From Candidatus Latescibacterota bacterium (GTDB taxonomy: Bacteria > Latescibacterota > UBA2968 > UBA8231), in assembly GCA_965221775.1 (NCBI GenBank), contig CBDCSU010000004.1, positions 96,001 through 160,000 on the forward strand: a stretch of 64,000 nt of DNA. The letters run 5' to 3'. The position numbers and the translations under genes were made by a program. Below the pieces are notes generated by a model. It worked only from the letters and a program-made list of their open reading frames with translations. It was not told the DNA's origin and searched no databases. Shown in pieces: positions 4,250 to 18,689 of the stretch. Numbering within the stretch: the stretch's first letter is position 1; each line of letters begins with the position of its first letter.

Positions 4250-4389
4250 GAGATGGCCTTTCCGGGTTGGGTGGTGCCGGCGATGCTTGGGATCGTTTGA
4301 GAAGAGACTCAAACTACGACGACCCCGGAGGGCCCCGCCACGCGGGCCCCGCCCCGGCCGAGCCCGACACCGCAAGGAAAGCCGAGCGC

Positions 4390-6234
4390 ATGAGCGGACA
4401 GCTGCCACCCGGCGCCGACCTGGACCGTCTCGAGGACCAGGCCCGGCGTCTGCACAGGGCCCACCGCTCCGCCAGCCCCTTCGTGACCGGGCGCCTGCGC
4501 CGGCACCTGCCGCGGTTCACGGGAGCCCCCGACCACGAGATCCGCTCGGCGTCGCTGCCGCTGCGCGACGCCCGCCAGGTGATCGCCCGCGAGCTGGGGT
4601 TCCGCGGCTGGTCCAGCCTCGAGCGCCGGGCCGGGGCGAAAGGCGGCGACTCCCGCAACCCGCGGGCGGAAGTCGGCACCCGTCTCGCCCCGTACGAGCG
4701 CCAGGCCGCCGATCTGCACGCCCGCCACCGTGAGGGCTGCCTCGACCAGGCGCGGCACGACGTCGCCCGCCGCCACGGATTCCATACCTGGTGGCGGCTG
4801 GTGGCCGCCGTCGACCGGGCGCGGCAGGCGCCCCTGCCCGTGCGTGCCTGTCCGTCCGATCCTGCGTGGGATCTCAAGCGCGAGGCCCGGGAGCTGCTGA
4901 AGGCCGCCCGCGGCGGCAGCCCCGCCGCCCTGCAGCGATTCCGCGACAGCCTCCTGCCCTTCGCCGAAACCCCCGACGACGAGCTGGCCGCGGCCGTCGT
5001 CCTGCGCCAGGCGCGCTACGTCCTCGAAGCGGAGTACCGCGGCGACCCGGAGGCCCAGCGCGAGACCCCGGCCCAGGTGCGGGCCTGGCGCGAGCGGCTG
5101 TGGGCGTCCCACGACCGGCAGGCGTCGTCGCGGCGCACGCGGGCGCAGATGTCCTTGAGGGAGCAGGCCTTCGTCGAGGCCGCCATGGGCGACTGGCGCC
5201 GCCCGCACCGGGCCTCCCTGCCGCGCCTGCGGGCCCTGGCCGCGGAGGATTCCGCCCTGATCGCCGGCGCCGGTCCCGCGGCCCTGGCCCGGGCCCTCTC
5301 CTGGGAGGGCGGCGAGCCGATCGTGCGCTTCCTCCTGGAGCAGGGGGCCCGCCTCGACCACGAGCCCGGCACCTTCGGCCCCCTGGACGGGGCCGTCTGG
5401 ACCGGCTGCCTGGAGAGCGTGCGCCTGCTGCTGGAGGCCGGCGGCGCCCCGGACCCCGCCGAGGCGGCGGTGGAGCCGCCCCACGGCGGCCTCGCCTCCC
5501 ACCGCACGCCGCTGCACACCGCCGCCTGGCTGGCCCAGCCCGAGATGACGGAGGTCCTGCTGGAGCACGGCGCCGCCCGCACCATTGAGGCGCGGCTGGG
5601 GGAGGACGGCTCCACGCCCCTGCAGCGGGCCGTCCTGGCCAACAACTGGCCCACCACCGACCCCTGGGCCCGGCGCGACCCCAACGGCCGGTCGAACCAC
5701 CGCAGCGGCCGCGAGGTGGCGGCCCTGCTGCTGGAGTACGGCGCCCGCTACGACATCTGGTCCGCCTGCGGGCTCGACGACGCCTGGCGGGTGGAGCAGT
5801 TGCTCCGGGAGGATCCGGCGCTGGTGAGGGCCGGAGACCCCAGCGGGTTCACGCCCCTCCACTGGGCGGCGAAGCAGGGCGCCCTCGAATGCGCCCGGAT
5901 GCTCCTCGACGTCGGCGCCGACGTCAACGCCGACTCGAACTCGCTGAAGATGCCCCTGCACCAGGCCGCGGTGGCCCACCAGAACATGGTTCTCCTGCCA
6001 TCGAACGTGGACCTCATGGCCCTGCTCATCGAGGCGGGGGCCGACGTCGACGCTCGGGACTCCAAGGGCCGCACGCCGCTGTTTCTCGCCTGCCAGGGCG
6101 GGTACGACCTGAACGCCGGGTACCTGATCCTCCTCGGCGCGAGGACCACGATCCGCAACCGCAAGGGCAAGTCGCCGCTGGATGTGGCGGCGAAGGGGTG
6201 TCGCTATCTGAAGGGCGGACAACGCGGCATATAG
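4390..6234 (+). CDS. Ankyrin repeat protein with repeated N-terminal helical modules
   Basis: TPLHTAA, TPLQRAV, TPLHWAA...LLDVGADVNA, GRTPLFLA, SPLDVA; AAGGA RBS before ATG 4390. Confidence 0.88.
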   Translation: MSGQLPPGADLDRLEDQARRLHRAHRSASPFVTGRLRRHLPRFTGAPDHEIRSASLPLRDARQVIARELGFRGWSSLERRAGAKGGDSRNPRAEVGTRLAPYERQAADLHARHREGCLDQARHDVARRHGFHTWWRLVAAVDRARQAPLPVRACPSDPAWDLKREARELLKAARGGSPAALQRFRDSLLPFAETPDDELAAAVVLRQARYVLEAEYRGDPEAQRETPAQVRAWRERLWASHDRQASSRRTRAQMSLREQAFVEAAMGDWRRPHRASLPRLRALAAEDSALIAGAGPAALARALSWEGGEPIVRFLLEQGARLDHEPGTFGPLDGAVWTGCLESVRLLLEAGGAPDPAEAAVEPPHGGLASHRTPLHTAAWLAQPEMTEVLLEHGAARTIEARLGEDGSTPLQRAVLANNWPTTDPWARRDPNGRSNHRSGREVAALLLEYGARYDIWSACGLDDAWRVEQLLREDPALVRAGDPSGFTPLHWAAKQGALECARMLLDVGADVNADSNSLKMPLHQAAVAHQNMVLLPSNVDLMALLIEAGADVDARDSKGRTPLFLACQGGYDLNAGYLILLGARTTIRNRKGKSPLDVAAKGCRYLKGGQRGI

Positions 6235-6318: not shown

Positions 6319-9300
6319 ATGTCATCCAGTTTCTCCGACACACTCCCCGGAGATTACCCCCGCCGGATCAAGAGCATCCGAGGCCTCCGGGGTCTGACGC
6401 AGACGCAGTTCGCGGAACTCGTCGGCGTCTCCTTTGCCTCCGTCAACCGCTGGGAGAACGGCCAGTCCCGTCCCAACACCCTGGCCTGGCGCCGCGTACT
6501 CGAGGTGGAAGCCCTGCCAGCAGACGGTTCGGACGAACCCTCGGCAGAGGAAACCGGGCCCCCAAGCATGGACTTCTCAGCCGATCCCGAGGCGGTCTCC
6601 GCCGTCGCCGAGGCCCATCGCCTCGCCAGCGGCCACCTCTTCAATCCCGCCTTCGCCACCGAGACCTCCCTGATCGACCCGCTTCCGCACCAGCGCATCG
6701 CCGTGTACCAGCGGATGCTTGACCAGTCCCCCCTTCGTTTTCTGCTGGCCGACGACGCCGGCGCCGGCAAGACCATCATGACCGGGCTGTACGTGCGCGA
6801 GATGCTTTCCCGCCGCCTCCTGCGGCGCGTGCTCGTCGTGCCCCCGGCCGGCTTGGTGGGCAACTGGGAGCGGGAGATGCGCACCCTCTTCCGCCTGCCC
6901 TTCCGCATCCTAGGCGGGGCCGACGCGCGCGCCGGCAACCCCTTCCTCGGACCGGAGAGCGACCTCGCCATCGTCAGCGTCGACACCCTGGCCGGGGAGC
7001 GCATGTTCGGCCACCTCGGGGATCCGCAGACCAGCCCCTACGACCTCGTTGTCTTCGACGAGGCCCACAAGCTGTCGGCAGACCGCCAGCCGGACTTCCG
7101 GGTGCGCAAGACGGGCCGCTACAAGCTGGCCGAGGCCCTGGCCGGCGCCGAGACCGACGACAAGGACGGGAGGGGGCTCTCCTGGTCGGCACAGCATCTC
7201 CTGCTGCTGACGGCCACCCCCCACATGGGCAAGGACCACCCCTACTACTATCTGTGGCGCCTGCTGCTGCCGGACGCCCTCTCCACCTACGACGCCTTCG
7301 AGGAGTTCCCCCCGGACTCGCGGCAGCGGCACTTCATCCGTCGCACCAAGGAGGAGATGGTCCACTTCGACCGTCGGCCCCTCTACCCGCAGCGCAAGTG
7401 CGACACCCTGGGCTACGAGCTGTCCCAGGGGCCGGGGAGCGAGCAGGAGCTGTACGACGAGACCACGGACTACATGCGCCATCACTACAACCGGGCGGCG
7501 GCGTTGAACCGGTCCGCCGCCCGCCTGGCGATGAGCGTCTTCCAGCGCCGCTTGGCCAGCTCCACCTATGCTCTCCTGCGCTCCTTCGAGCGCCGCCTCG
7601 AGAAGCTGGAGGGGCTCATCGACGACATCCGCAGCGGCCGCCTAACCGAGGAGCAGCTCGCGAGGCGGCAACAACAGCTCCGGCCCGACGATCTCTTCGA
7701 GACGCGCACGGCTGACGAGGAGGCGGAGATCGAAGACGGGGAACAGCACGAGGACTTCGAGGCCCGGGCCCTCGAAGGCACGGTGGCGGTCAACCTCGCC
7801 GAGCTGGAGGCGGAGCGTGTCAAGGTCGCCGGGTTGCGCGACAAGGCGCAGAGGCTCTTTGACCAAGGTGAGGAGTCGAAGTTCGAGAAGCTGAGGGAGG
7901 TCCTTGCGGCTCCGGACTACCGCGACCAGAAGCTCATCATCTTCACCGAGCACCGGGACACGGCGGGGTTCCTGGTGCGCCGACTCGAAGGCCTTGGCTA
8001 CACGGGCCACGTCGCCCTCATCCACGGCGGCCTTGCCTACCCGGAGAGGGAGCGCCAAGTCGAACTTTTCCGCCGGCCCGCGGACCAGGGCGGGGCCAGT
8101 TATCTCGTGGCCACCGACGCCGCCGGCGAGGGGATCAACCTCCAGTTCTGCTGGCTCATGGTGAACTACGACATCCCCTGGAACCCGGCCCGGCTGGAGC
8201 AGCGCATGGGGCGCATCCACCGTTACGGCCAGAAGCGGGACCCGGTGGTCATCGTCAACCTCGTCTCCGCGGGCACCCGGGAGGGCCGGGTGCTGAAGAC
8301 CCTGCTCGACAAGCTCGAGGCGATCCGACGGCAGCTCAGCTCCGACAAGGTCTTCGACGTGGTGGGCCGTCTCTTCGAGGGGCTGTCCGTCCGGGACTAC
8401 CTGGCCCAAGCGGTGATGGATGGAGCCGGCGCCGACGCCGCTGCTGAGCGGCTGGAGGGCCACCTCACGGAAGAGCAGGTCCGGGCCCTCGAGGAGAGAG
8501 AGCGCGCCATTTACGGGGACGGCGGCGAGGTGCGCGGCCGGCTGGACGATCTCAACGAGGAGATGGAGCAGGAGAACTACCGCCGGCTGCTGCCCGGGTA
8601 CGTGCGCCGTTTCGTCGAGCATGCCGCGCCGCTCCTCCACCTGCGCCTGGATGGGGATCCGGGTGGCGCCTTCTCCCTGGTGCCTGACCGGCCTCGGGCC
8701 GCCGACCCCCTGCTGTCCGCCCTGGAGGTCTACCCGGAGGAGGCGAGGGAGCGGCTGACGGTGTACAAGCCCGAGAGCCGCGACGACGCTATCTGGCTGC
8801 ATCCCGGTGAGCCGGTCTTCGACAGCCTCTCGGCCGCGGTCCGGGAGCGCCTCGGAGCCGAAGGGCTGCGCGGCGCCGTGTTCAGCGACCCCTATGCCAG
8901 CGACCCGTACCTGTTCCACATCGCCCGCGTCAGCGTGCACCAGCATACGCCGGCGGTTGACCGCGACGAGGGTGGAGAGGCGCCGCAACTGGTGGAGTCG
9001 CGGCTGGTGGGGCTGCGCCAGAGCAGAGAGGGTGCCGTGGAGGAGTGCCCCGTGGAGCACTTGCTCCTGTTGCGCGGCGCCGGCGGTATCGCCCCCGGCG
9101 GCGTGCCCCTGGCCACCTTGGCGCGGGGCATGGCCGGAGAGGCCGCCGATTTCCTTGGCGGGGAAGTGGTCGAGCAGATCGTGCAGACACACCGCCAGCG
9201 CCGCCTGGACGATCTGCCCGGCCGCCTGGAGTTCGTCAACCGCGGATTCGACTATCAGGCGGCCGAGCTGGCAGCCGCCCGGTCCCGTCTCAGGGAGAAA

Positions 9301-9939
9301 GCCGGCACCGGGGACCGTCAGTCCGCCGAGGAGTTGGCCAAGGTCAGGGAGCGGCAGCGGAGCCTCAACGCCCTGCGCGCCCACCGACTTGCCGGGCTGC
9401 GGGCCGAGCCAGAGCACATCCGGGCCGGGGAGGCCGAGTTCCTCGTGCATGCCCTGGTGGTGCCGGCCCAGGACGACAGGGAGGCGGAGCGCTACGACGC
9501 CGATGTCGAGGCCATCGCCATGGAGGTAGCCGCCGCCTACGAGAAGGAGCGGGGCGCCCAGGTGCGGGATGTCTCCAAGCCGGAGTTGGCGAGGCGGGCC
9601 GGACTGCCGGACTGGCCGGGCTTCGACCTCCTGTCCCGCGGCGAGGGAATGGAGGACCGAGCCATAGAAGTCAAGGGACGGGCCGGCACCGGCGGCGTGG
9701 AGTTGGAGGAGAACGAGTGGGCCAAGGCCTGCAACCTGAGAGAGAGATACTGGCTCTACGTGGTCTACGACTGCGCGACGGCGAGGCCGCGACTGGCGCG
9801 GGTGCGGGACCCATTCGCCAAGCTGCTGGTGAGGGAACGAGAGTCCCGTACCTTCATCATCACGGCGGGGGCGGTCATGGAGGCGTCGGAGGAGGGCAGA
9901 AAAGATGAACCGGGGTTAAAGCGGGGACAGGGTGATTGA
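6319..9939 (+). CDS. XRE-HTH + SNF2-family (SF2) helicase + C-terminal DUF3883 (PD-(D/E)xK) nuclease
   Basis: HTH LTQTQFAELVGVSFASVNRWENG; LADDAGAGKT, DEAH, LTATPH, IIFTEH, TDAAGEGINLQ, WNPARLEQRMGRIHRYGQ; C-terminal GFDLLS...IEVKG...ENEW...YWLYVV. Confidence 0.93.
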   Translation: MSSSFSDTLPGDYPRRIKSIRGLRGLTQTQFAELVGVSFASVNRWENGQSRPNTLAWRRVLEVEALPADGSDEPSAEETGPPSMDFSADPEAVSAVAEAHRLASGHLFNPAFATETSLIDPLPHQRIAVYQRMLDQSPLRFLLADDAGAGKTIMTGLYVREMLSRRLLRRVLVVPPAGLVGNWEREMRTLFRLPFRILGGADARAGNPFLGPESDLAIVSVDTLAGERMFGHLGDPQTSPYDLVVFDEAHKLSADRQPDFRVRKTGRYKLAEALAGAETDDKDGRGLSWSAQHLLLLTATPHMGKDHPYYYLWRLLLPDALSTYDAFEEFPPDSRQRHFIRRTKEEMVHFDRRPLYPQRKCDTLGYELSQGPGSEQELYDETTDYMRHHYNRAAALNRSAARLAMSVFQRRLASSTYALLRSFERRLEKLEGLIDDIRSGRLTEEQLARRQQQLRPDDLFETRTADEEAEIEDGEQHEDFEARALEGTVAVNLAELEAERVKVAGLRDKAQRLFDQGEESKFEKLREVLAAPDYRDQKLIIFTEHRDTAGFLVRRLEGLGYTGHVALIHGGLAYPERERQVELFRRPADQGGASYLVATDAAGEGINLQFCWLMVNYDIPWNPARLEQRMGRIHRYGQKRDPVVIVNLVSAGTREGRVLKTLLDKLEAIRRQLSSDKVFDVVGRLFEGLSVRDYLAQAVMDGAGADAAAERLEGHLTEEQVRALEERERAIYGDGGEVRGRLDDLNEEMEQENYRRLLPGYVRRFVEHAAPLLHLRLDGDPGGAFSLVPDRPRAADPLLSALEVYPEEARERLTVYKPESRDDAIWLHPGEPVFDSLSAAVRERLGAEGLRGAVFSDPYASDPYLFHIARVSVHQHTPAVDRDEGGEAPQLVESRLVGLRQSREGAVEECPVEHLLLLRGAGGIAPGGVPLATLARGMAGEAADFLGGEVVEQIVQTHRQRRLDDLPGRLEFVNRGFDYQAAELAAARSRLREKAGTGDRQSAEELAKVRERQRSLNALRAHRLAGLRAEPEHIRAGEAEFLVHALVVPAQDDREAERYDADVEAIAMEVAAAYEKERGAQVRDVSKPELARRAGLPDWPGFDLLSRGEGMEDRAIEVKGRAGTGGVELEENEWAKACNLRERYWLYVVYDCATARPRLARVRDPFAKLLVRERESRTFIITAGAVMEASEEGRKDEPGLKRGQGD
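9781..9897 (+). repeat. Direct repeat copy 1 (3' end of the helicase gene)
   Basis: Aligns by eye to 12026-12143 with 8 substitutions and one 1-nt indel. Confidence 0.95.
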
Positions 9940-11496
9940 GTGGACGAACGTACAATGAAGATTGGTATTGCAAGCCGATTCCTAAGGGACCTCCATGGCC
10001 TATCGCCTACGTTGAGGAAGAAGACCCTGGAGCTTATACACGAGCTTCAAGGGGTGGGGCAAACCGAGCTTAGGCAGAAGGCATTGCCGGGCTGGCGGCT
10101 CCACAGTCTCCGGGAGTCAAGTATGGTATCCCTCTCGGTAGATATGAACTTCCGGATCCTTGCTCAATTCACTCAGGGTGCTCTTATCCTCCATCGGGTA
10201 GTAAGACACGATGTGGCTGATCGTGCCACAGTGAACAGGAACGATCAAGCCGAAGCCATAGTCCAGATGAGCCCTGAAGAGATTCGTCCCGCGGATGTAT
10301 ATGATGCGTTGCTTTCCTTCGGTGTGCCCCGACATGAGGCTGAGTTCTTCCGCGAGTGCTCAACAGAAGATGACCTTCTGAACGTAGCAGTTAAGGTCTC
10401 AGAGGAAACGGCAAGTCTTGCCCTGACCCTGTACGAGACAAGCGGCCTCCCAATCCCTCAGGCTCGGTTCCGGATCCTCCAAAGAGATGAGGATCTCATG
10501 CGTCTTCTTGAGGCGGGAGGTACTGAGTGGAATCTATACCTACACCCGTCTCAAGCATACATTGTGGAACTAGAACCCTCCTTTCGAGCGGCCATCGTAG
10601 GTTCTGCCGGCACAGGTAAGACGGTTTGTGCGTGGCATCGCAGCAAGCATCTGATTGACTTGGGTGTATCGGTCGGTTTCGTTTGTCCGCACGAATCGGT
10701 GCTAGACATCTCGAAGCAGAATCTAATTGACATGATCGGACCGGAAGATGAACGGAGTTACTTCTTTGTCCCGAAGCAACCCGATGAGCTCCTACAGCTT
10801 GCTGATGCCGTTGACCATCTCATTATCGACGAGGCACAGGAGATTCCTCCGACATGGTTCTCCAACCTTGCAGCAAGAATGCGTGATACAGTTGGGCTGA
10901 CCGTGCTCTATGATCTGAATCAGCTCGGAGGTAATATCCGGGATGGCGACACCGCCCGATACCGGGACCGAATTGCCGGCTGGAAGTCAATGTTGAGCGG
11001 ATTCCCCAGAATGAGGAAGTTCAATCTGACGATCAATTATAGAAACGCACGAGAAATCGCCGAGTGTTATCTGGAACTGCTGTCAGAAGCACTGCCTGCA
11101 AAACCATTTGCTGACGTTCCCGTGTTCGAATCTGGAGAGGTTCTCCGGCATAGGGTCAAGAGTGGATACTTGGAAGACGAGCTTGCTAGTATTCTACGAA
11201 GGATGCTGGTGGACTATTCCTCTCACGAGATTGGGGTAGTTGTTCTCAACCGAGGACCGAGCAGCCTACTCTGCCACCTGTCCCGGCGCAAGCTTCCTGT
11301 CGTGCGGGATGCAAAGCAGGACGGAATTGTTATTACTACCGCGGCGAAGGTTCGCGGCCACGAACGAGAAGTGATGATTGTGATTGCGAAGAGCACCCAA
11401 GCTCTGTGTCGGAGTTTTGGCGCCGCAATCGATGCCTATATTGCGATGTCACGAGCGATAAAGCAGCTCATCGTAGTCGAGGAAGAGGGCAGATGA
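9940..11496 (+). CDS. RelE-like N-terminal domain fused to a compact SF1 (UvrD-like) helicase/ATPase
   Basis: N-terminal IASRFLRDL...WRLHSL...SLSVDMNFRIL...HD pattern; YLHPSQ, GSAGTGKT, LIIDEAQE, YDLNQ, LTINYRN, VRGHER, YIAMSRA; visibly lower GC; GTG start directly after the helicase stop. Confidence 0.75.
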   Translation: MDERTMKIGIASRFLRDLHGLSPTLRKKTLELIHELQGVGQTELRQKALPGWRLHSLRESSMVSLSVDMNFRILAQFTQGALILHRVVRHDVADRATVNRNDQAEAIVQMSPEEIRPADVYDALLSFGVPRHEAEFFRECSTEDDLLNVAVKVSEETASLALTLYETSGLPIPQARFRILQRDEDLMRLLEAGGTEWNLYLHPSQAYIVELEPSFRAAIVGSAGTGKTVCAWHRSKHLIDLGVSVGFVCPHESVLDISKQNLIDMIGPEDERSYFFVPKQPDELLQLADAVDHLIIDEAQEIPPTWFSNLAARMRDTVGLTVLYDLNQLGGNIRDGDTARYRDRIAGWKSMLSGFPRMRKFNLTINYRNAREIAECYLELLSEALPAKPFADVPVFESGEVLRHRVKSGYLEDELASILRRMLVDYSSHEIGVVVLNRGPSSLLCHLSRRKLPVVRDAKQDGIVITTAAKVRGHEREVMIVIAKSTQALCRSFGAAIDAYIAMSRAIKQLIVVEEEGR

Positions 11497-11900
11497 GGGA
11501 CTTCCGTCAACTGGTTGTGCAGCGTCCGCCAGACCAATCCGATATAGAGAACCTTCTGCGGAAGGGAGCACTTGGCAAGGCACTTCGACAGGCAAGAGCC
11601 ACGGGTTTGATCATTCCTCAAGAAGACATTGAGGCCACGGCAATCGAGATGTTCAATTCCAACCGTGCGGGCGAGTTATTGGCCATGGTTGGTAAAGTAG
11701 ATGTAGACCTGCCATTTGACACGAGCCAACTGCTTCTACGTGTCTTTGAAGCAGGAGACTACCATACGTTTCTGAAACAGGTGCATCGTTTGGGTGTCGG
11801 AGCGAATGAGGAGCTCAGGGTCACGGAAGCTATCGCAGTAGTTGAACGAACTGCTCCCCTGGAAGCACGGTCCTGGAGACGGAAGTTCCGTACAGTGTGA
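11493..11900 (+). CDS. Hypothetical alpha-helical protein (135 aa)
   Basis: ATG 11493 overlaps the upstream TGA (ATGA); same low-GC composition; no recognisable motif. Confidence 0.7.
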   Translation: MRDFRQLVVQRPPDQSDIENLLRKGALGKALRQARATGLIIPQEDIEATAIEMFNSNRAGELLAMVGKVDVDLPFDTSQLLLRVFEAGDYHTFLKQVHRLGVGANEELRVTEAIAVVERTAPLEARSWRRKFRTV

Positions 11901-12025
11901 AGCATGCGGCGTTGGTGAGAGGGAGATGTCTTAGGCAATGCTGCTGTCTCTGCATCGACCACTTGGACTTAGGAATTGGATCGTAGGTCTTGATCTGAGA
12001 CTATTGGAGATCGCACGATGCTGAA

Positions 12026-12143
12026 GCGAGGCAGCGACTGGCGCGGGTGCGGGACCCCTTCGCCAAGCTGCTGATGAAGGGAACGAGAGTCCCTTACCCT
12101 CACCATCACGGCGGGGGCGGTCATGCAGGCGGCGGAGGAGGGC
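12026..12143 (+). pseudogene. Direct repeat copy 2: remnant 3' end of a second helicase allele
   Basis: About 92% identical to 9781-9897. In the helicase frame it ends AGAVMQAAEEGPGS-stop, with TGA 12153-12155 overlapping ATG 12152. Confidence 0.88.
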
Positions 12144-12151
12144 CCAGGGTC

Positions 12152-13759
12152 ATGACGACGACTGGCATCCGTTTCTTCAACACCGCGGGACCGATCGTGG
12201 CGGCGGATCACTACCATGTGCCGCCGCTGGAGCGGCTGGACCGCGACGAGGTGCTGATGCTGATCCGTCAGCAGAAGTACTTCGTGCTGCACGCTCCCCG
12301 GCAGACAGGCAAGACCTCGGCCCTGCTGGCGCTGAGAGATCTGCTCAATAGCGGTGTCGCCGGCGAGTACCGCTGCGTCTACGTCAACGTCGAGGCGGGC
12401 CAAGCGGCGCGCGAGGATGTCGCAACGGCGATGCGGGCAATCCTCAGCGCCCTCGCCCGTGCGGCGCGTCAAACCCTCGATGACCAGTTCGTCGCTGACG
12501 CCTGGCCTGGCATCTTCGAGGGCTCCGGCCCCAACGATGCCCTTGGGGAAACCCTGTCCCGCTGGGCCGAGTCGGACCCCCAGCCGCTGGTGCTGCTGAT
12601 CGACGAGATCGACGCCCTGATCGGCGACAGCCTGCTGGCGGTGCTGCGGCAGTTGCGCGCCGGGTATGCAGACCGCCCACGGCGGTTTCCGCAGAGCGTG
12701 GTCCTTGGCGGGGTGCGGGACGTGCGCGACTACCGCATCCGCTCTTCCGCCGAGAACGCCGTCATCGCCGGGGGCAGCGCCTTCAACATCCGGGCCGAGT
12801 CCCTGCGCCTGGGGGGCTTCTCCCGCGAGGAGGTGGAGTCGCTGCTGGGGCAGCATACCGAGGAGACCGGGCAGGCCTTCACGGAGGAGGCGCGCGCGGC
12901 GGTCTGGGAACTGACCGAGGGCCAGCCGTGGCTGGTGAACGCCCTGGCCTACGAAGCCTGCTTCCGCAACAAGGCCGGCCGCGACCGGGGCCAGGAGGTG
13001 ACCGCCGAGGCCATCCAGGATGCGCGCGAGCAGTTGATCCTGCGCCGGGAAACGCACCTGGACCAGCTCACCGACAAGCTCCGGGAGGAGCGGGTGCGCC
13101 GGGTGATCGAGCCGCTGCTGAGAGGCGCCGACGACGCCGGTCCCATCGCTGCCGACGACTTGGAATACGTACGCGACCTCGGCCTGGTTGCCCGCGACAG
13201 CCCGGTCCGCATCGCCAACCCGATCTACCGCGAGGTGATCCCCCGCGATCTGACGTTCACGACCCAGGCGGGTTTCCATCACGACCCGTCCTGGTACGTG
13301 GACGAGGGCGGGGCCCTGGAGGTGGACAAGCTGCTGGCCGCGTTCCAGGAGTTCTTCCGGGAGCACTCCGAGCACTGGGTGGAGCGCTTCCAGTACAAGG
13401 AGGCGGGTCCGCAGTTGCTGCTTCAGGCCTTCCTTCAGCGCATCCTCAACAGCGGCGGCCGCATCGAGCGCGAGTACGGCCTGGGGCGCCTGCGCACCGA
13501 TCTGCTGCTGGTGTGGCCGCTGCCGGGAGATGCGGGCGGGGTGCAGAAGGCGGTCGTCGAGTGCAAGGTGCTGCACCGGGGCCTGGAGCGGACCCTGCGC
13601 GAAGGGCTGGAGCAGACACGGGCCTACATGGACCGCTGCGGGTCGGCGGAGGGGCACCTGGTGATCTTCGACCGCACCGAGGGCAAGTCGTGGGAGGAGA
13701 AGGTGTACCGCCGCGACGAGACCGGGGGCGGCGCCCCGGTCACAGCGTGGGGGATGTGA
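12152..13759 (+). CDS. AAA-like ATPase with C-terminal PD-(D/E)xK nuclease domain
   Basis: RFFNTAGP start, APRQTGKTS, LLIDEID, SAFNI, GQPWLVN, IEREYGLGRLRTDL...VVECK; GGAGG RBS. Confidence 0.9.
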   Translation: MTTTGIRFFNTAGPIVAADHYHVPPLERLDRDEVLMLIRQQKYFVLHAPRQTGKTSALLALRDLLNSGVAGEYRCVYVNVEAGQAAREDVATAMRAILSALARAARQTLDDQFVADAWPGIFEGSGPNDALGETLSRWAESDPQPLVLLIDEIDALIGDSLLAVLRQLRAGYADRPRRFPQSVVLGGVRDVRDYRIRSSAENAVIAGGSAFNIRAESLRLGGFSREEVESLLGQHTEETGQAFTEEARAAVWELTEGQPWLVNALAYEACFRNKAGRDRGQEVTAEAIQDAREQLILRRETHLDQLTDKLREERVRRVIEPLLRGADDAGPIAADDLEYVRDLGLVARDSPVRIANPIYREVIPRDLTFTTQAGFHHDPSWYVDEGGALEVDKLLAAFQEFFREHSEHWVERFQYKEAGPQLLLQAFLQRILNSGGRIEREYGLGRLRTDLLLVWPLPGDAGGVQKAVVECKVLHRGLERTLREGLEQTRAYMDRCGSAEGHLVIFDRTEGKSWEEKVYRRDETGGGAPVTAWGM

Positions 13760-13771
13760 ACGCACAGGAAG

Positions 13772-15058
13772 GTGGATAGAGTGCACTACCTTACTGATTT
13801 CAAGGGATTCAAGGAGGCCGCCATCGATCTGCTGCGGCCATTCACGCTGCTGATCGGACCGAACGGCTCGGGAAAGAGCAATGTCATCGAGGCGGTCGAG
13901 CTGCTGTCCTTCATCGCGCGGGGTCAACCTCTCCATGAGATCGCGGACGTTGGTCGTGCGCCCGGAGGTCTTCAGATCCGGGGGGGGGTTCAGGCTTGCG
14001 GCCGGGCCGGCGGGAACAGATTCACCCTTGGGTTCATCGCCAAGGTAAGGCTTCACGATGAGTTCAAGTCGGTCACCTACATTCTGAGCCTCTTTACAAG
14101 GCCACATCCCCAGATAGCCGCTGAGCGGCTGAGTTACGGCGACCGGGTGATCTACCGAACACTTCCAAGACATCCCGGATCAGTGCCACGCGATGTAACC
14201 GTGGAATACGACAACTTCGCTCGCGGTGGAAGGAAACCCCAAGCTGCCGCTTCATCAGACCGTTCCGTCCTTTCCCAGTATCAGGAGATTGCGCGCAAGA
14301 ACCGGAATATGAAAGAATGCATGCAGCTTGTGGATGCGCTCCGGCATCATCTGCAAGCCTCCTTCATTTTCGATCCAGATCCCAAGCTCATGCACGTCTA
14401 TGAGCGAATCGGCAACACTACCCTCTCCCGGGATGGCGCCAACTTGTCGGCGGTTCTCTACTCCCTTCATACAGGTGACGAAGCTGATCAGGCATTGTTG
14501 GCTCGTTTGCTTTCCCGCATTTCCCAGCTTCCCGATGAGCCGTACGAGGAGTTCAGTTTTACCACGACCGATCTCGGGGACGTGATCTTTGGACTCCGCG
14601 AGAGAACGGGCTACACCGTGGACGCCCGGGCCCTGTCCGATGGAACGCTGAGAACCCTGGCTATCCTGACCGCCCTGGAGACGGTCCAAGAGGGCTCCCG
14701 AGTCATCGTGGAGGAGTTCGACAACGGACTCCACCCGAGCCGGACAGGAGTACTGACGGCCGCCATAGGTGATGCCACTGAGAGACGCAAGTTGAAAGTA
14801 CTGGTTACCACGCACAATCCTGCCACCATGAACAGCCTGACAGATGAGCAGCTGAAGGGAGTGGTTCTCTGCACGTGGAGCCAGACCAAGGAATGCGCCG
14901 ATCTCGTTGGGTTGGCTAACCTTCCGCGGTCCGACGAGCTCCTTGAGCGCGGACAGCTGGGGGATCTCGTCTCGCGCCGCGTCGTCGAGCAGTACCTGGC
15001 ACCGGAGTTCGAGGAACGCCAGCGCGAGAAAGTCCAGGAGTGGGTTGAGGCTCTGTAG
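13772..15058 (+). CDS. ABC-type (AAA_21/AbiEii-like) ATPase
   Basis: GPNGSGKSN, LSDGTLR signature, IVEEFDNGLHP, TTHNP. Confidence 0.9.
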   Translation: MDRVHYLTDFKGFKEAAIDLLRPFTLLIGPNGSGKSNVIEAVELLSFIARGQPLHEIADVGRAPGGLQIRGGVQACGRAGGNRFTLGFIAKVRLHDEFKSVTYILSLFTRPHPQIAAERLSYGDRVIYRTLPRHPGSVPRDVTVEYDNFARGGRKPQAAASSDRSVLSQYQEIARKNRNMKECMQLVDALRHHLQASFIFDPDPKLMHVYERIGNTTLSRDGANLSAVLYSLHTGDEADQALLARLLSRISQLPDEPYEEFSFTTTDLGDVIFGLRERTGYTVDARALSDGTLRTLAILTALETVQEGSRVIVEEFDNGLHPSRTGVLTAAIGDATERRKLKVLVTTHNPATMNSLTDEQLKGVVLCTWSQTKECADLVGLANLPRSDELLERGQLGDLVSRRVVEQYLAPEFEERQREKVQEWVEAL

Positions 15059-15552
15059 TGAATCCGCCCGTCTACCTGATCGATACCAGCTACCTGCTGG
15101 AGCTGTTCGCCGTCCCAGGATGCTCTACCGAGGCAGCCGTTGCGGAGGTAAGGCGGCGCGTCAAGGATGGTGCGAGGAACGGCGCCCGGCTGTACGTGAC
15201 TGTGCCCTGCATATTCGAGTTGGCGAGTCACATCTCCGATGTGGCCGACGGCAATCTGCGGGTCTTTGGCCGGAACCATGGCAGACACCGTTCTGTCCAG
15301 TCTCGACGAAGGAATGCCATGGACCGTCTTGCCTTCTCGGGCGTCTCGCTGGCTCAGGGAGGCTGTAGCAGGCTTTACAGACACTCACGTCCGCGAGGCA
15401 TTGACTTGACTGATGGCACACTGATCGACGAGGCCCGCAGGCTCAGGCAGGGCCGGTACCGCGGGCCAGAGTGGCGAGTGCACATCTGGACCAAGGACAC
15501 GAAGCTGAAGGCGAGAGAGCCTGACACGGAGCCCGATGCGTTCCTCGGGTGA
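15058..15552 (+). CDS. PIN-domain-like protein, possibly with two compensating frameshifts
   Basis: YLIDTSYLLEL, IFELASHI, IDLTDGTLI, HIWTKD acidic PIN pattern; GTG overlaps the upstream TAG; the middle segment reads better in the +1 frame. Confidence 0.7.
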   Translation: MNPPVYLIDTSYLLELFAVPGCSTEAAVAEVRRRVKDGARNGARLYVTVPCIFELASHISDVADGNLRVFGRNHGRHRSVQSRRRNAMDRLAFSGVSLAQGGCSRLYRHSRPRGIDLTDGTLIDEARRLRQGRYRGPEWRVHIWTKDTKLKAREPDTEPDAFLG

Positions 15553-15576
15553 TCCTCTGCGGATGAACGGCCCACC

Positions 15577-16836
15577 ATGCTGAAGCGAGTCCAGATTCGG
15601 GGATACAAGTCCCTCAAGGACCTGGAGGTGACCCTCTCCTCCCTCGTCGTCCTCGTCGGGCCGAACGCCACGGGCAAGAGCAACCTGCTCGATGCCCTGC
15701 AGCTCCTGTCCAGGTTGGGAACGAGCCGCACCTTGAGGGAGGCCTTCGATCCACCCTACCGCGGCAAGCCGCTGGAATCGTTCACCATCGGGAGCGGGGG
15801 GATCAGGGGCCTGCTGGAGCAGGACAGGCTTTCCCTCTCCATCGAGGCCGACTTGAGCCTGTCGGACTCGGCGGTCGATGCTGTCAACCGACAGATCCGG
15901 GAGATGGGGCGTCCCCATGGAGCCCCCGCCCGGGTCCGTGAACGGGATCTCCGCTACCGGATCGAGGTGGAGATGCTGCCCCGATCCGGCATTCTGCGGG
16001 TGGCGGATGAATACCTCGCCGCCTTGAACCGCAAGGGCGAGCCCACGGGAAAGCGGAAGCCCTTCCTTGAGCGGCAGGGAGAGAGGATCCGCCTTCGCAA
16101 CGAAGGCCAGACGCACCCGACGTATTTCGACTGTTACCTCGACCACAGCATCCTCTCCATGCCGCACTACCCTCCGCACAATCCTCACTTGGTAGCGGCT
16201 CGTCACGAGCTGGAAAGCTGGCGGTTTTTCTACTTCGAGCCGCGTGAACGCATGCGCGCCGCCAGCCCGGTCAAGGAGGTTCGCCATATCGGGTTGATGG
16301 GCGAGGAACTGGCGGCCTTCCTCTATACCATGAAGGCCACCGATGCCCGGCGGTTCAGGGGCGTCGAGAAGGCCCTGCATGTCCTGATGCCCGACATCGA
16401 TGGAATCGAGGTGGATGTCAGCGATCTGGGTGAGGTCGAGCTCCGTCTCAGAGAGGGCGGTGCGGCCATTCCAGCCCGCGTCCTCTCGGAGGGCACACTC
16501 AGGATACTTGGTCTTCTCGCCCTGTCCGGACTGGACCAGGGCCCGGCCTTGGTCGGGATCGAGGAGCCCGAGAACGGGGTCCACTCCCGGCGAATCGAGT
16601 TGATCGCCGAGTTGCTGAGAACCCAGGAGAGCCTGAACCGGATCCAGCAGATCATCACCACCCACTCCCCGATCCTGCCTGATCTGCTGGAGGAGGAGTC
16701 GCTGTTCGGGGTCCGCCGGCTGAACGGCCGGACTCGCATCGATCCGGGCAGGAACGAGACCGACTTCCAGTGCCCGCACGCATCCGCTGTTGGGCACCGG
16801 CTCAAGAGTCTGCATGGAACGACAGCCGCGTCATAG
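15577..16836 (+). CDS. Second ABC-type (AAA_21) ATPase, C-terminus probably replaced
   Basis: MLKRVQIRGYKSL, GPNATGKSN, LSEGTLR, IEEPENGVH, TTHSP; the tail after RTRIDP looks unrelated and overlaps the next gene. Confidence 0.85.
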   Translation: MLKRVQIRGYKSLKDLEVTLSSLVVLVGPNATGKSNLLDALQLLSRLGTSRTLREAFDPPYRGKPLESFTIGSGGIRGLLEQDRLSLSIEADLSLSDSAVDAVNRQIREMGRPHGAPARVRERDLRYRIEVEMLPRSGILRVADEYLAALNRKGEPTGKRKPFLERQGERIRLRNEGQTHPTYFDCYLDHSILSMPHYPPHNPHLVAARHELESWRFFYFEPRERMRAASPVKEVRHIGLMGEELAAFLYTMKATDARRFRGVEKALHVLMPDIDGIEVDVSDLGEVELRLREGGAAIPARVLSEGTLRILGLLALSGLDQGPALVGIEEPENGVHSRRIELIAELLRTQESLNRIQQIITTHSPILPDLLEEESLFGVRRLNGRTRIDPGRNETDFQCPHASAVGHRLKSLHGTTAAS

Positions 16837-17068
16837 CAAGGAGGAGTTCGCCCGGCGTGGTCAGGCGATCTACGAGCAGCGAGTGAGGCCGCAGGTGGAA
16901 GAAGGCAACAGCGGTCGCGTCGTGGCGATTGACATTGAGACCGGCGAGTTCGAGGTGGGGGACGATCCCTTGGCCGCCTCCGACCAACTGTTCGCGCGCT
17001 GTCCAGATGCGCAGCCGTGGCTGATCCGGATCGGCCACCGTGCGCTACACCGGCTCGGCGCATCATGA
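16814..17068 (+). CDS. Small DUF5678-like protein (usual partner of clan AA aspartic proteases)
   Basis: SKEEFARRGQAIYE...VVAIDIETGEFEV...RIGH pattern. Confidence 0.72.
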   Translation: MERQPRHSKEEFARRGQAIYEQRVRPQVEEGNSGRVVAIDIETGEFEVGDDPLAASDQLFARCPDAQPWLIRIGHRALHRLGAS

Positions 17069-17085
17069 TCGAGGGTGCAGTTTCA
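17065..17085 (+). pseudogene. Stub (MIEGAVS) of a probable clan AA aspartic protease gene
   Basis: ATGA overlap with the upstream gene and an MIxGxV start typical of that family; the frame closes after 14 codons inside the CBASS start region. Confidence 0.45.
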
Positions 17086-17096
17086 GAAAGGAAACG

Positions 17097-18029
17097 ATGG
17101 CTATGCTAACTAGGAATTGGGAGAATGAATTCAGCCAGTGGGCACGGCCACCGGGTACGGTCGAGGATGAGCGTTGTGAGAACGCGATCAAAGCCATTCG
17201 CAATGCGATCGCCAAAAGCGACAAGCTGAAAAGCCGGCGATTGAAGGTCTTTCCACATGGCTCGTACCGCAATCGTGTCAATGTCCGTCAAGACAGCGAC
17301 GTCGATGTGGCAGTTCTCTGCGATGAGAGTTTTTTTCGCGACCTCCCCTCTGGGACTACCGACGAGACCTTTGAGATTACCCCAGCGACCTACCATTATG
17401 TTCAGTTCAAGAACGAACTTGTGGAAGCCTTGACCGAGCACTTTGGAGTTGGATCGGTCCGTCGGGGGAACAAAGCGATCGACGTTCGAGAGAACACGTA
17501 CCATGTGGAAGCTGATGTTGCTCCGTTTTTTGAATATCGATACTACTGGAAGAAAGGGACTTACCGATGCGGAGTGGCACTACGCCCTGACACCGGCCCA
17601 CTGATCAAGAACTACCCCGAATGTGTACTCGATAGCTGGCCGCAGATACCTATGCATTACGAGAATGCGGTCTCAAAGAACAAGAGAACTCATCGTTCTT
17701 ACAAGGGTGTAGTGCGTATTCTCAAGAAACTTCGTAACGAAATGGATGATGCTCTCATCTCTGCCGCCAAGTCAATTCCCGGGTTTCTGGTCGAGTGCAT
17801 GGTCTGGAATTCACCGACTGCGTGCTTCCGAGGGAACACTTGGGACGGCAAACTGCAAGCGGTGCTTGTACATCTGTGGTCGAACACCAAGAACGATATA
17901 CACTGTGAGGACTGGAAGGAGGTCAATGACATTAAATTTCTCTTTGCCTCAGGGCAGCCGTGGACACGACGTGAGGCTTTTGATTTCGTGGACGCCGCGT
18001 GGAGCTATGTCGGAAGAAGGACGAAGTGA
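17097..18029 (+). CDS. cdnE: CD-NTase (cGAS/DncV-like cyclase), CdnE-like
   Basis: NWENEFSQW start, HGSYRNRVNVRQDSDVD, RGNKAIDV, EADV, VRILKKLRN, IPGFLVECMVWN, WKEVNDIKFLF; start 17097 or 17103. Confidence 0.92.
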   Translation: MAMLTRNWENEFSQWARPPGTVEDERCENAIKAIRNAIAKSDKLKSRRLKVFPHGSYRNRVNVRQDSDVDVAVLCDESFFRDLPSGTTDETFEITPATYHYVQFKNELVEALTEHFGVGSVRRGNKAIDVRENTYHVEADVAPFFEYRYYWKKGTYRCGVALRPDTGPLIKNYPECVLDSWPQIPMHYENAVSKNKRTHRSYKGVVRILKKLRNEMDDALISAAKSIPGFLVECMVWNSPTACFRGNTWDGKLQAVLVHLWSNTKNDIHCEDWKEVNDIKFLFASGQPWTRREAFDFVDAAWSYVGRRTK

Positions 18030-18682
18030 GAGTTGATCGGGTTCATATCGCTGTCTTCCTTGCAATAGCTGCACTTGCTTGGTGGATTACTTTGGTCCTT
18101 CAGGGCACCGCAGTCACTTCTGAACACGCAGCACCCTTCACTGTGGTCATGAGTGCTCTTGGAGTGTTAGGGTATGTCTTCGAGCACTTTCTCTGGCGTT
18201 GCCAGTTACTTCACGGATGGTTTTTTACCAGGCCGAATCTTCGCGGGACTTGGCGTGTTGAACTTCGGTCAAGCCATATGAAGCAGGACAGCGGAGAGGG
18301 TGCACCCCTGATTGTGTGCTATATGGGAGTCGAACAGACACTATCGGAACTCAAAATGCATCTGATGACCTCAGAGTCTGAGTCTTGGTGCATCGCGAGC
18401 CATACGAAGCCCTCACCAAGCGGAAACGGTTACCAGGTAGTCTGTGTCTATAGTAGCAAGCCAAATATTCATCTGCGCGACGAACGGATTAGCGAGATAC
18501 ACAATGGAGCTATCATCCTTGACACTCATGGAGCTGGTGTTCGGCCCGACACCCTTACGGCAGAGTACTGGACGGACCGCAAGACGACAGGGACCATGAA
18601 TTTCACCAGCCGTGTGGATCGGGTTTTCACACGCTTTGAAGATGCGAATCAACACTTCGGGGCAAGGACGGGACTACCTTGA
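18026..18682 (+). CDS. cap15: CBASS effector, 2TM + beta-barrel (Cap15/S-2TM-beta)
   Basis: Two N-terminal TM helices, FEHFLWR...RPNLRGTW, SES.S, YWTDRKTTG; GTGA overlap with the cyclase stop. Confidence 0.88.
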   Translation: MRVDRVHIAVFLAIAALAWWITLVLQGTAVTSEHAAPFTVVMSALGVLGYVFEHFLWRCQLLHGWFFTRPNLRGTWRVELRSSHMKQDSGEGAPLIVCYMGVEQTLSELKMHLMTSESESWCIASHTKPSPSGNGYQVVCVYSSKPNIHLRDERISEIHNGAIILDTHGAGVRPDTLTAEYWTDRKTTGTMNFTSRVDRVFTRFEDANQHFGARTGLP

Positions 18683-18689
18683 GGAAGAC

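Follow-up and report, generated by a model that had tools for sequence, protein, structure and literature searches.

The window analysed here, 64,000 nt of a Candidatus Latescibacterota bacterium (assembly GCA_965221775.1, contig CBDCSU010000004.1, positions 96,001-160,000, forward strand), carries a defence locus in which the 3' end of a helicase gene, hmaA, occurs twice. Judged by its profile matches, the locus is a Hma (helicase-methylase-ATPase) phage-defence system, the PADLOC component profiles HmaA, HmaB and HmaC all matching near one another on the + strand. Genes were called with PADLOC and Pfam profiles, and with NCBIfam for some. The hmaA product contains Pfam HTH_3, SNF2-rel_dom (SNF2/DEAD helicase) and Helicase_C domains followed by a C-terminal NOV_C (DUF3883) domain. 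A search with HmaA gave 2625 proteins at E ≤ 1e-3 among 8000 scored, the best 120 being 61-89% identical over the last 407 amino acids (aa). The tail of the protein is conserved: most of 60 relatives end in ...ITxGAVxEAAE and a minority carry short extensions. In the window, a 14-codon extension at the 3' end of hmaA (9898-9936) runs into the leader of a two-gene cassette, g1 and g2, coupled to one another by an ATGA overlap (11493-11496). Altogether the slot between hmaA and hmaB holds eight co-oriented genes: g1, g2, a gene for an AAA_22/AAA_35 ATPase (the AAA gene), PDC-M07A, PDC-M07B, HEC-01A, a CD-NTase and a 2TM effector (Table 1).

The repeat was measured by MAFFT alignment, by a repeat search of positions 1-30000 and by self-blastn. 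As a sequence-only reading of the window had described, 9781-9897 (copy 1) recurs at 12026-12143 (copy 2) with 8 substitutions and one 1-nt indel (self-blastn, 92.4% over 118 columns, E 1.5e-44). No other long high-identity direct repeat was found within 1-30000, and a search for the HmaA C-terminus in 9940-30000 returned copy 2 as the only significant match (tblastn E 1e-9, blastn E 3.8e-40; next E 0.012). Upstream of the indel the copies share identical blocks of 7, 24 and 15 nt, and downstream of it blocks of 16, 22, 5 and 11 nt, so that 46 of the 100 identical block bases precede the frameshift described below. By hand count, seven of the eight substitutions change an amino acid, and most of the resulting residues occur in intact relatives. 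The low G+C noted earlier for the flanked cassette is likewise confirmed: values of 0.51-0.54 across 10000-12000 compare with ~0.70 on either side, and by gene g1-g2 has 0.529, hmaA 0.692 and the AAA gene 0.693.

Copy 2 holds a 3' gene fragment only (codons 1155-1193 plus PGS and a stop), lacking a 5' part, downstream of the full-length hmaA. The sequence-only reading had it run in the helicase frame to a TGA placed over the start of the next gene. The overlap is present (TGA 12153-12155, ATG 12152-12154; TCATGA), but the single frame is not, because an extra G in GGG at 12079-12081 shifts it: the first 18 codons lie in the frame of the downstream gene and only the last 24 sense codons (RESLTLTITAGAVMQAAEEGPGS) reach the TGA. 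Read over the frameshift, copy 2 gives RQRLARVRDPFAKLLMK/RESLTLTITAGAVMQAAEEGPGS and stop, which departs from the tail of P0002 by four residues and the one frameshift (here and below, P numbers denote protein relatives of window proteins and L numbers related loci). A Shine-Dalgarno-like GGAGGAGGG (12134-12142) lies within copy 2, 9 nt ahead of the AAA start. Owing to the frameshift, the first half of this orphan end shares the frame of the AAA gene, and the reading frame that starts at a GTG at 12047 (12047-12151) runs on into that gene, a possible 35-aa N-terminal extension. A further short open reading frame (ORF) spans the junction at 12018-12074, its 18 codons (MLKRGSDWRGCGTPSPSC) standing behind an intact HEC-01A ribosome-binding region. 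A promoter and terminator scan of 9600-12400 gave sites no commoner than in shuffles and no + strand terminator, and a search of 9000-19000 against Rfam gave nothing at E ≤ 0.1.

Table 1. Features of the Hma locus in the window and of orphan hmaB ends in related loci (coordinates without a locus name are those of the window).
Feature	Position	Strand	Details
hmaA	6319-9939	+	1206 aa; PADLOC HmaA E 1.2e-163, profile positions 68-1131 of 1176
Putative left homologous crossover	9589-9609	+	Inside hmaA, between codons 1090 and 1097
Copy 1	9781-9897	+	Codons 1155-1193 of working hmaA; P0008/P0369-like allele
g1	9955-11496	+	513 aa; SF1/UvrD-like helicase core, unknown N-terminal domain; low G+C
g2	11493-11900	+	135 aa; without family match in Pfam, PADLOC or NCBIfam
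Spacer of putative imported block	11901-12017	+	Conserved with L004; ends in HEC-01A ribosome-binding region
HEC-01A start remnant	12018-12030	+	ATGCTGAAGCGAG, 13 nt; last 5 nt GCGAG (12026-12030) shared with hmaA
Copy 2, orphan hmaA 3' end	12026-12155	+	Codon 1155 to stop; L003/P0002-like
AAA_22/AAA_35 ATPase gene	12152-13759	+	535 aa; C-terminal PD-(D/E)xK-like motif
PDC-M07A (ABC ATPase)	13772-15058	+	PADLOC E 3.1e-100
PDC-M07B	15058-15552	+	PADLOC E 1.5e-34
HEC-01A ABC ATPase	15577-16836	+	PADLOC E 4.1e-55
CD-NTase (CBASS cyclase)	17040-18029	+	PADLOC Cyclase E 1.4e-112
Cap15-like 2TM effector	17999-18682	+	PADLOC Effector 2TM E 3.2e-54; Pfam Cap15_CD_rec
hmaB, DUF1156 DNA adenine methylase	18690-21947	+	PADLOC HmaB E 5.8e-119; Pfam DUF1156 E 9.1e-19
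Schlafen AlbA_2, HATPase_c_4, TPR gene	21966-23951	+	Pfam; embedded between hmaB and hmaC
hmaC, DUF499-type ATPase	23988-27305	+	PADLOC HmaC E 5.1e-70
hmaB-start orphan	L014 17271-17376
hmaB-start orphan	L016 16390-16491
hmaB-start orphan	L023 18686-18762
hmaB-start orphan	L025 17775-17841
hmaB-start orphan	L026 17997-18075
hmaB-start orphan	L027 8385-8463
hmaB-start orphan	L032 18386-18464
hmaB-start orphan	L072 15334-15428
hmaB 3'-end second copy	L057 21116-21262		2-3 kb downstream of hmaB
hmaB 3'-end second copy	L067 22312-22424		2-3 kb downstream of hmaB

Each half of the structure has a counterpart among 77 related loci from species-representative genomes (157 of 305 matched stretches were confirmed and the best 80 kept). 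In L003 the hmaA tail is intact and ends in ...GGGTCATGACGACGAC, and its TGA overlaps the ATG of a homologue of the AAA gene, again as TCATGA; window 12035-13759 is colinear with L003 13481-15204 at 89.8% over 1726 columns. By this comparison, copy 2 is a genuine former hmaA end, still joined to its own cargo, as the sequence-only reading had proposed. The AAA gene follows hmaA directly in seven of the 77 loci (L001, L003, L014, L019, L049, L051 and L064). A fusion of HmaA with the AAA protein, considered for L001, was ruled out by a TAG right after ...EASE. The other half, window 9402-12030, is colinear with L004 13093-15731 (79.8% over 2645 columns), where the matching stretch comprises the hmaA 3' end, g1, g2, the spacer and the start of HEC-01A. 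L004 is the only one of the 77 loci in which hmaA is followed by g1-g2; its g2, kept beside g1, is 78% identical, and g1 itself has no homologue above 78% among 637 matches, the closest other being 78% identical and on a contig equal in length to that of L004. Both single-cargo arrangements are accordingly present among relatives, and the proposal that two differently loaded alleles have been stacked in the window is borne out by the two colinear stretches.

The match of copy 2 to L003 is not uniform. Columns 1-32 and 85-97 of the alignment are copy 1-like (1 and 0 mismatches, compared with 7 and 4 in the alignment with L003), and columns 33-84 and 98-130 are L003-like. Later gene conversion between the copies could lie behind this patchwork, or the resident allele may already have been mosaic.

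The right-hand junction was defined from the fragment of HEC-01A that precedes copy 2. Within the window the 13-mer ATGCTGAAGCGAG has exactly two occurrences, one at 12018 and the other where the window's own HEC-01A begins (15577), against 0.01 expected, and none of 100 shuffles gave two copies. At the place of window 12018-12030, L004 reads ATGCTGAAACGAGTCC. The pentamer GCGAG is common to the HEC-01A start and to hmaA codons 1155-1156, and from 12026 on the sequence is that of hmaA. This junction is best described as a 5-nt microhomology join of a cargo gene start to a helicase tail, not as a tail-to-tail crossover. Because it keeps the HEC-01A start at the microhomology, the tail duplication would be a by-product of an illegitimate join. 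An upstream extension of the repeat beyond 12026 (DYW...HDAE against RYWLYVV...YDCAT) was rejected, the stretch in question being colinear with the L004 spacer and HEC-01A start.

On the left, the best-supported single breakpoint in hmaA lies at aa 1090-1097, ~180 nt upstream of copy 1. Informative sites divide 106:29 between P0001-like and P0008-like states before this point and 2:16 after it (Fisher p 3e-8). Up to aa 1096, P0364 differs from the window HmaA at 23 of 1096 residues (2/100, 7/500 and 14/496), and in aa 1097-1193 at 21 of 97; P0369 and P0008 differ from it at 4-6 of 97 residues in this last stretch and at 13-15% elsewhere. P0368 is another mosaic HmaA. The 90% cluster of the window HmaA has nine members, of which the window protein alone has 1206 aa and the others 1191 or 1197 aa. 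In view of the breakpoint, which was drawn from protein alleles, the conserved 3' part of hmaA is plausibly the left homologous anchor. The idea that the helicase 3' end served as a homology handle is thus plausible for the left side and fails for the right, where the microhomology join is found.

The best homologues of the AAA protein, P0241 and P0242 (96%), come from contigs of 19112 and 381823 nt, equal in size to those holding P0001 and P0364, and none of the 120 g1 matches listed is on a contig of such a size. In the closest HmaA relatives, hmaA therefore seems to be accompanied by the AAA gene and not by g1.

The description of the event as integrase-free is upheld. No integrase or transposase domain was found by Pfam in the 14 + 19 ORFs taken into the mobility-domain scan, a tRNA scan of the window found none, and neither a recurring border site nor a further tail remnant was found at cassette borders in 9940-30000.

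We read the duplicated tail as a recombination scar in the Hma locus, left by one-sided homologous plus illegitimate recombination, rather than as a working element, and we put the probability of this reading at about 70%. In the starting state, hmaA would have been directly and translationally coupled to the AAA/PD-(D/E)xK gene, as it still is in L003, the AAA gene being the original first cargo of this hmaA lineage. The donor would have been an L004-like, differently loaded Hma locus with the order hmaA, g1, g2, HEC-01A. Homologous recombination within the conserved hmaA 3' part, around nt 9589-9609, would have brought in its left end, and its right end, 13 nt into HEC-01A, would have been joined illegitimately to codon 1155 of the resident hmaA at GCGAG. 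The imported block of ~2.4 kb (~9600-12030) would have comprised a P0008-like hmaA end, g1, g2 and 13 nt of HEC-01A, so that the resident hmaA had ~180 nt replaced, the locus gained ~2.25 kb of low-G+C cargo and the last 39 codons of the resident gene were left as an orphan ahead of the AAA gene. Composition alone (0.53 against 0.69 G+C) points to a foreign origin of the g1-g2 block. The retained orphan, frameshifted as it is, would make no helicase, yet it would provide the AAA gene with its Shine-Dalgarno sequence and start context, a possible reason for its retention. This gene has its ribosome-binding site within hmaA in L003-type alleles, so that insertions keeping it translatable presumably had to keep the hmaA end. 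The repeat, the two colinear parental arrangements in relatives, the make-up of the junction, the mosaic breakpoint and the recurrence of orphan ends in other Hma loci are observed; we infer the order and direction of events, the mode of DNA uptake (transformation, conjugation or other) and the co-transcription of the array.

Several points weigh against this reconstruction. Tail 2 is L003/P0002-like and unlike the tails of the closest relatives P0364 and P0001, which would mean that the resident allele was already mosaic or that more than one event took place. The patchwork of copy 2 blurs the reconstruction, the microhomology included, and at 5 nt the microhomology is short. No close donor was found, the nearest g1 being 78% identical and the L004 hmaA tail not P0008-like; P0008 and P0369 end in ...EEGNQES and ...EEGNQGS, resembling an AAA-coupled rather than a g1-coupled tail. 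The shared-contig argument linking P0241 and P0242 with P0001 and P0364 is indirect, being one of equal sizes alone. A chimeric read or assembly is formally possible. Finally, the structure is symmetric and can equally be read as an insertion of 12031-15589 into the HEC-01A start of an L004-like resident.

This reverse direction, in which an L004-like resident received the hmaA tail, the AAA gene, M07A, M07B and beyond through the same junction, is the alternative that survives best, although we regard it as unlikely. The incoming left end would have been joined illegitimately 13 nt into HEC-01A, and the right crossover would have been homologous, in HEC-01A or downstream of it. Under such a scheme the 13-nt HEC-01A head, present at 12018 and 15577, is duplicated in the same way as the 117-nt hmaA tail; tail 2 and the AAA gene are colinear with one relative, L003, and the dissimilarity of tail 2 to the tails of the window's closest HmaA relatives finds an explanation. 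However, those relatives (97.9% over aa 1-1096) seem to have AAA genes of 96% identity on the same contigs, with no g1 seen, the breakpoint at aa 1090-1097 would need a separate event, and the compositional outlier is g1-g2 and not the AAA gene.

The sequence-only reading had gone further and taken the defence content of the locus to be switchable through recombination between the copies. In its strong form, tail-bearing cassettes would excise as circles and re-integrate by a single homologous crossover, reversibly and free of an integrase, which we consider quite improbable. Direct repeats do flank the cassette, the patchwork of copy 2 is as expected of copies that exchange sequence, and several hmaB-head orphans elsewhere (see below) break within ~10 nt of one another in differing cargo contexts. 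Nevertheless, the left edge of copy 2 is the HEC-01A start at a 5-nt microhomology and not a defined site, the other cassette boundaries of the window bear no tail remnant, and three hmaA orphans break at different codons (~1128 in L008, 1155 in the window and ~1174 in L064) and are independent events. The copies share no perfect identity longer than 24 nt; efficient RecA recombination usually needs a minimum of ~25 nt. Deletion between the copies is possible in principle but would be expected only rarely. A crossover ahead of the indel would produce an in-frame HmaA-AAA fusion, and only one in the last ~65 nt would restore an hmaA ending in ...EEGPGS and stop, coupled to the AAA gene. Since, in addition, neither the junction nor any junction variant was seen in the 77 loci, the notion of switchable content is not sustained.

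A chimera, of reads or of the assembly, between two co-existing strains with hmaA-g1-g2-HEC-01A and hmaA-AAA is very unlikely, because the parental sequences overlap at the junction by 5 nt only, far too short for bridging by an assembler. Such an artefact would suit the metagenomic assembly of the closest relatives' genomes, the existence of several near-identical HmaA variants (the nine of the 90% cluster) and the position of the indel in a short G run; against it, similar orphans are present in other, independent assemblies (L008, L064 and the cases of hmaB heads and tails) and the downstream array is continuous in a single orientation. Local tandem duplication of the hmaA end, after which the copies diverged and the cassette was later inserted between them, would account for direct repeats 2.2 kb apart but has a next to negligible chance of being correct, contradicted as it is by the allele-specific way in which the copies differ: they match two natural alleles, the EEGPGS ending and stop of copy 2 included, copy 1 and the cassette are colinear with L004, and the amino-acid-changing substitutions (7/8) mostly give residues present in intact relatives.

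Orphan ends of this kind were surveyed by taking 400-nt pieces of each locus's own hma genes and searching for second copies at E ≤ 1e-10. For the pieces that face a cargo slot, a second copy was found for the last 400 nt of hmaA in 4 of 73 loci (the window, L008, L064 and L071), for the first 400 nt of hmaB in 8 of 67 (L014, L016, L023, L025, L026, L027, L032 and L072) and for the last 400 nt of hmaB in 2 of 56 (L057 and L067). The control pieces gave 0/69 for the first 400 nt of hmaA, 0/78 for its middle 400 nt and 1/57 for the middle 400 nt of hmaB, the single case being a 50-nt local tandem repeat. In total, array-facing ends had second copies in 14 of 196 examinations, the window included (13 other locus-ends), and 204 control examinations yielded the one local tandem repeat. 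This small survey suggests that the scar is not a one-off. A protein-level search for orphan tails found a second hmaA tail in L008 only, short orphans being missed at this level.

The L008 orphan is clean, comprising the last 60 hmaA codons and the stop, and lies 0.8 kb past the real stop. In L064, the last 18 hmaA codons and the stop lie ahead of an aspartyl-protease-like small ORF and a CBASS cyclase; a cyclase of this type stands directly 3' of hmaA in L047. L071, counted among the 4/73, is ambiguous: its second copy lies within a 551-aa ORF that is 33-40% like the HmaA C-terminal region, and may represent a converted patch in a paralogous gene and not an orphan.

The hmaB-start orphans consist of the start codon and ~20-35 codons, are 77-97% identical to the real head and are placed inside the array, 1.5-3.7 kb upstream of hmaB. 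In L025, L026, L027 and L032 the orphan lies ~40 nt ahead of a HEC-01A gene. Across three cargo contexts the breaks fall within ~10 nt, just before the HIWPARRP codons, and two of the three groups share ~12 nt beyond the break; either shared descent or a preferred site would account for this clustering. The second copy of the hmaB end in L057 lies between hmaB and hmaC, and in L067 no hmaC was found within the fetched stretch; both look like the same type of scar in the second embedding slot. Two truncated genes were also seen. L001 has a 228-aa ORF (17466-18152) matching only the C-terminal third of HEC-01A (5'-truncated), and L008 has a 305-aa ORF (16513-17430) whose match to HmaB is confined to the first ~190 residues and which lies 1.7 kb upstream of the remaining hmaB match.

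A broader generalization, which we view as rather doubtful, would make the hma ends that face cargo slots general integrase-free handles and the Hma loci self-extending, in the manner of an 'integron without an integrase'. Orphan hmaA tails, hmaB heads and hmaB tails may then mark cassette borders in many lineages, ordinary homologous recombination could carry repeat-flanked cassettes from one Hma locus to another or remove them, and the clustered hmaB-head breaks would represent a preferred insertion point and not shared descent. The likeness to integron arrays lies in one-directional, promoter-less cargo that grows beside a fixed gene while older cargo is pushed downstream. The difference is that no integrase and no recurring border site were found here, and that the junction is a gene-start fragment at a microhomology.

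Embedding in Hma loci is already known, as are displacement scars in Rhs, contact-dependent inhibition (CDI) and type VI secretion system (T6SS) loci. C-terminal displacement and orphan modules in Rhs and CDI loci are reportedly treated by Jackson (2009), Poole (2011) and Koskiniemi (2014), and homology-facilitated illegitimate recombination is said to be covered by de Vries and Wackernagel (2002), Prudhomme et al. (2002) and Meier and Wackernagel (2003). Homology-facilitated illegitimate recombination is also the subject of PMC3240628 and was invoked for effector-immunity displacement in T6SS loci (Kirchberger et al., 2017; PMC5361080), in the portions of these papers available to us. As far as these portions go, the window shares with Rhs, CDI and T6SS displacement an upstream homology anchor, an illegitimate join and an old 3' end orphaned downstream together with its partner; in both settings arrays grow by successive events with no integrase, and the orphan, here copy 2, matches the end of a full-length allele and is followed by that allele's partner (L003). 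It differs in that the hmaA tail is conserved and is not a variable toxin domain, the varying part being the downstream cargo of defence systems, in that the partner of the orphan is an ATPase-nuclease-like gene instead of an immunity gene, and in that the 5' head of hmaB, the next core gene, also occurs as mirror-image orphans. With the cases of homology-facilitated illegitimate recombination described in the same portions, it has in common one homologous anchor, one microhomology join and a net gain of foreign DNA, whereas here the event is read from sequence alone, in an organism with metagenome-assembled relatives.

In the accessible text of their preprint, Payne, Hughes, Fineran and Jackson (bioRxiv 10.1101/2024.01.29.577857) report embedded genes in 931 of 1485 Hma systems and coin the term HEC for Hma-embedded candidates. 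At most three genes were allowed between hma genes, and loci with pseudogenes were dropped. That text gives no mechanism of embedding ('recombin' occurs 0 times) and offers only the idea of a 'genomic sink', leaving the significance for exploration. The window resembles the Hma loci of that text in having HmaA, HmaB and HmaC on one strand with co-oriented nested systems, among them HEC-01A, PDC-M07 and CBASS; it departs from them in its eight genes between hmaA and hmaB, compared with no more than three, and in its orphan hma ends, which that text does not describe. The window array (9940-18689) exceeds the three-gene limit, which is a detection threshold and not a biological criterion, and such arrays escape that detection rule. 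The gap between hmaA and hmaB measures 8751 nt in the window, exceeds 500 nt in 66 of 68 loci and exceeds 8 kb in 5 of 68. The preprint's accessible text also mentions the EcoprrI type I restriction-modification system, which embeds PrrC. There too a defence gene is nested in, and co-oriented with, a modification-based system; functional coupling is a feature of that system, whereas the Hma locus was read for gene arrangement alone.

In the parts seen of the literature searched on Hma, guilt-by-embedding and C-terminal displacement, neither orphan hma ends nor a mechanism by which recombination embeds defence systems was found described, the papers listed on C-terminal displacement and defence dealing almost entirely with Rhs or T6SS and never with Hma or the embedding of defence systems, and the displacement scar may have some value as a first mechanistic clue to the growth of Hma arrays. 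Nested defence systems serve the discovery of antiviral genes ('guilt by embedding'), and the accessible text of the preprint leaves the origin of the nesting open. The window would make one case of nesting readable, with Hma-derived cargo, a homology anchor in the helicase gene, closure at a microhomology and the old tail left behind. If the pattern held in a full survey, orphan core-gene ends could delimit cassettes and order acquisition events, could help to find long arrays missed under the three-gene rule, and would account for embedded genes having retained the host system's orientation and translational context.

Among the cargo genes, g1 gave weak profile matches only (Pfam AAA_19; PADLOC RTasNERD-Hel/AbiO/Nhi) and matched the C-terminal part of NCBIfam HelR at E 6.6e-13, far under the cut-off; Pfam, PADLOC and NCBIfam assigned it to no known defence family. 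Its Atlas neighbours are UvrD helicases. A search of plasmids gave distant, partial UvrD-like matches in 35 records, none spanning 80% of the query, and a search of phages gave no match. The AAA protein has a P-loop ATPase domain (Pfam AAA_22 E 1.6e-8, AAA_35 E 6.1e-6), and its residues D450, E470 and K472, which we take to be a PD-(D/E)xK motif, are invariant in 32 sequences. Residues 281-535 gave no Pfam match even at E 5 and no sequence relative in PDB, and PDDEXK_3 occurs in 32-50% of the members of its Atlas neighbours. The label 'AAA-nuclease' used in the sequence-only reading is plausible for this predicted product. The family is very large and tightly conserved, all 8000 scored candidates having E ≤ 1e-30 and the 120 homologues listed being 68-96% identical; among the matches listed, contigs of 575302, 7053776, 216348 and 18940 nt recur, a hint that a genome may carry more than one copy. 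The PDC-M07A/B pair also stands 3' of the AAA gene in L001.

The HEC-01A gene of the window lacks the DUF4276 partner (HEC-01B) that is present in L002 (14941-15522). DNA homology to L002 ends at 16746, 90 nt ahead of the HEC-01A stop, and resumes at hmaB (18696), for which the start is the ATG at 18690 (MTDKRLIEAAFPL). The intervening stretch holds an ORF of 92 codons (16790-17068) without a family match and the CBASS-type pair (17040-18682), which has a G+C of 0.52; this low-G+C pair and the 92-codon ORF seem to have taken the place of the partner and of the HEC-01A 3' end. L002 shares the upstream genes of the window (83-87% at the amino acid level), and where the window has a 655-aa ankyrin-repeat gene with G+C up to 0.80 (4267-6234), L002 (9608-10001) has only ~390 nt ahead of hmaA. 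The protein encoded between hmaB and hmaC matches, in PADLOC, only N-terminal regions of Argonaute-associated proteins (E 5e-17). In L004, a TIR-APAZ protein and a short prokaryotic Argonaute are embedded at 17665-20635 (PADLOC Aga_TIR-PNTD1-PNTD2 E 1.9e-68, pAgo_I E 2.8e-167). A TIR-APAZ and short Argonaute pair was assigned in L001 (18791-21749) from ORFs of matching size alone, and in these two loci the pair lies between HEC-01A or M07 and hmaB.

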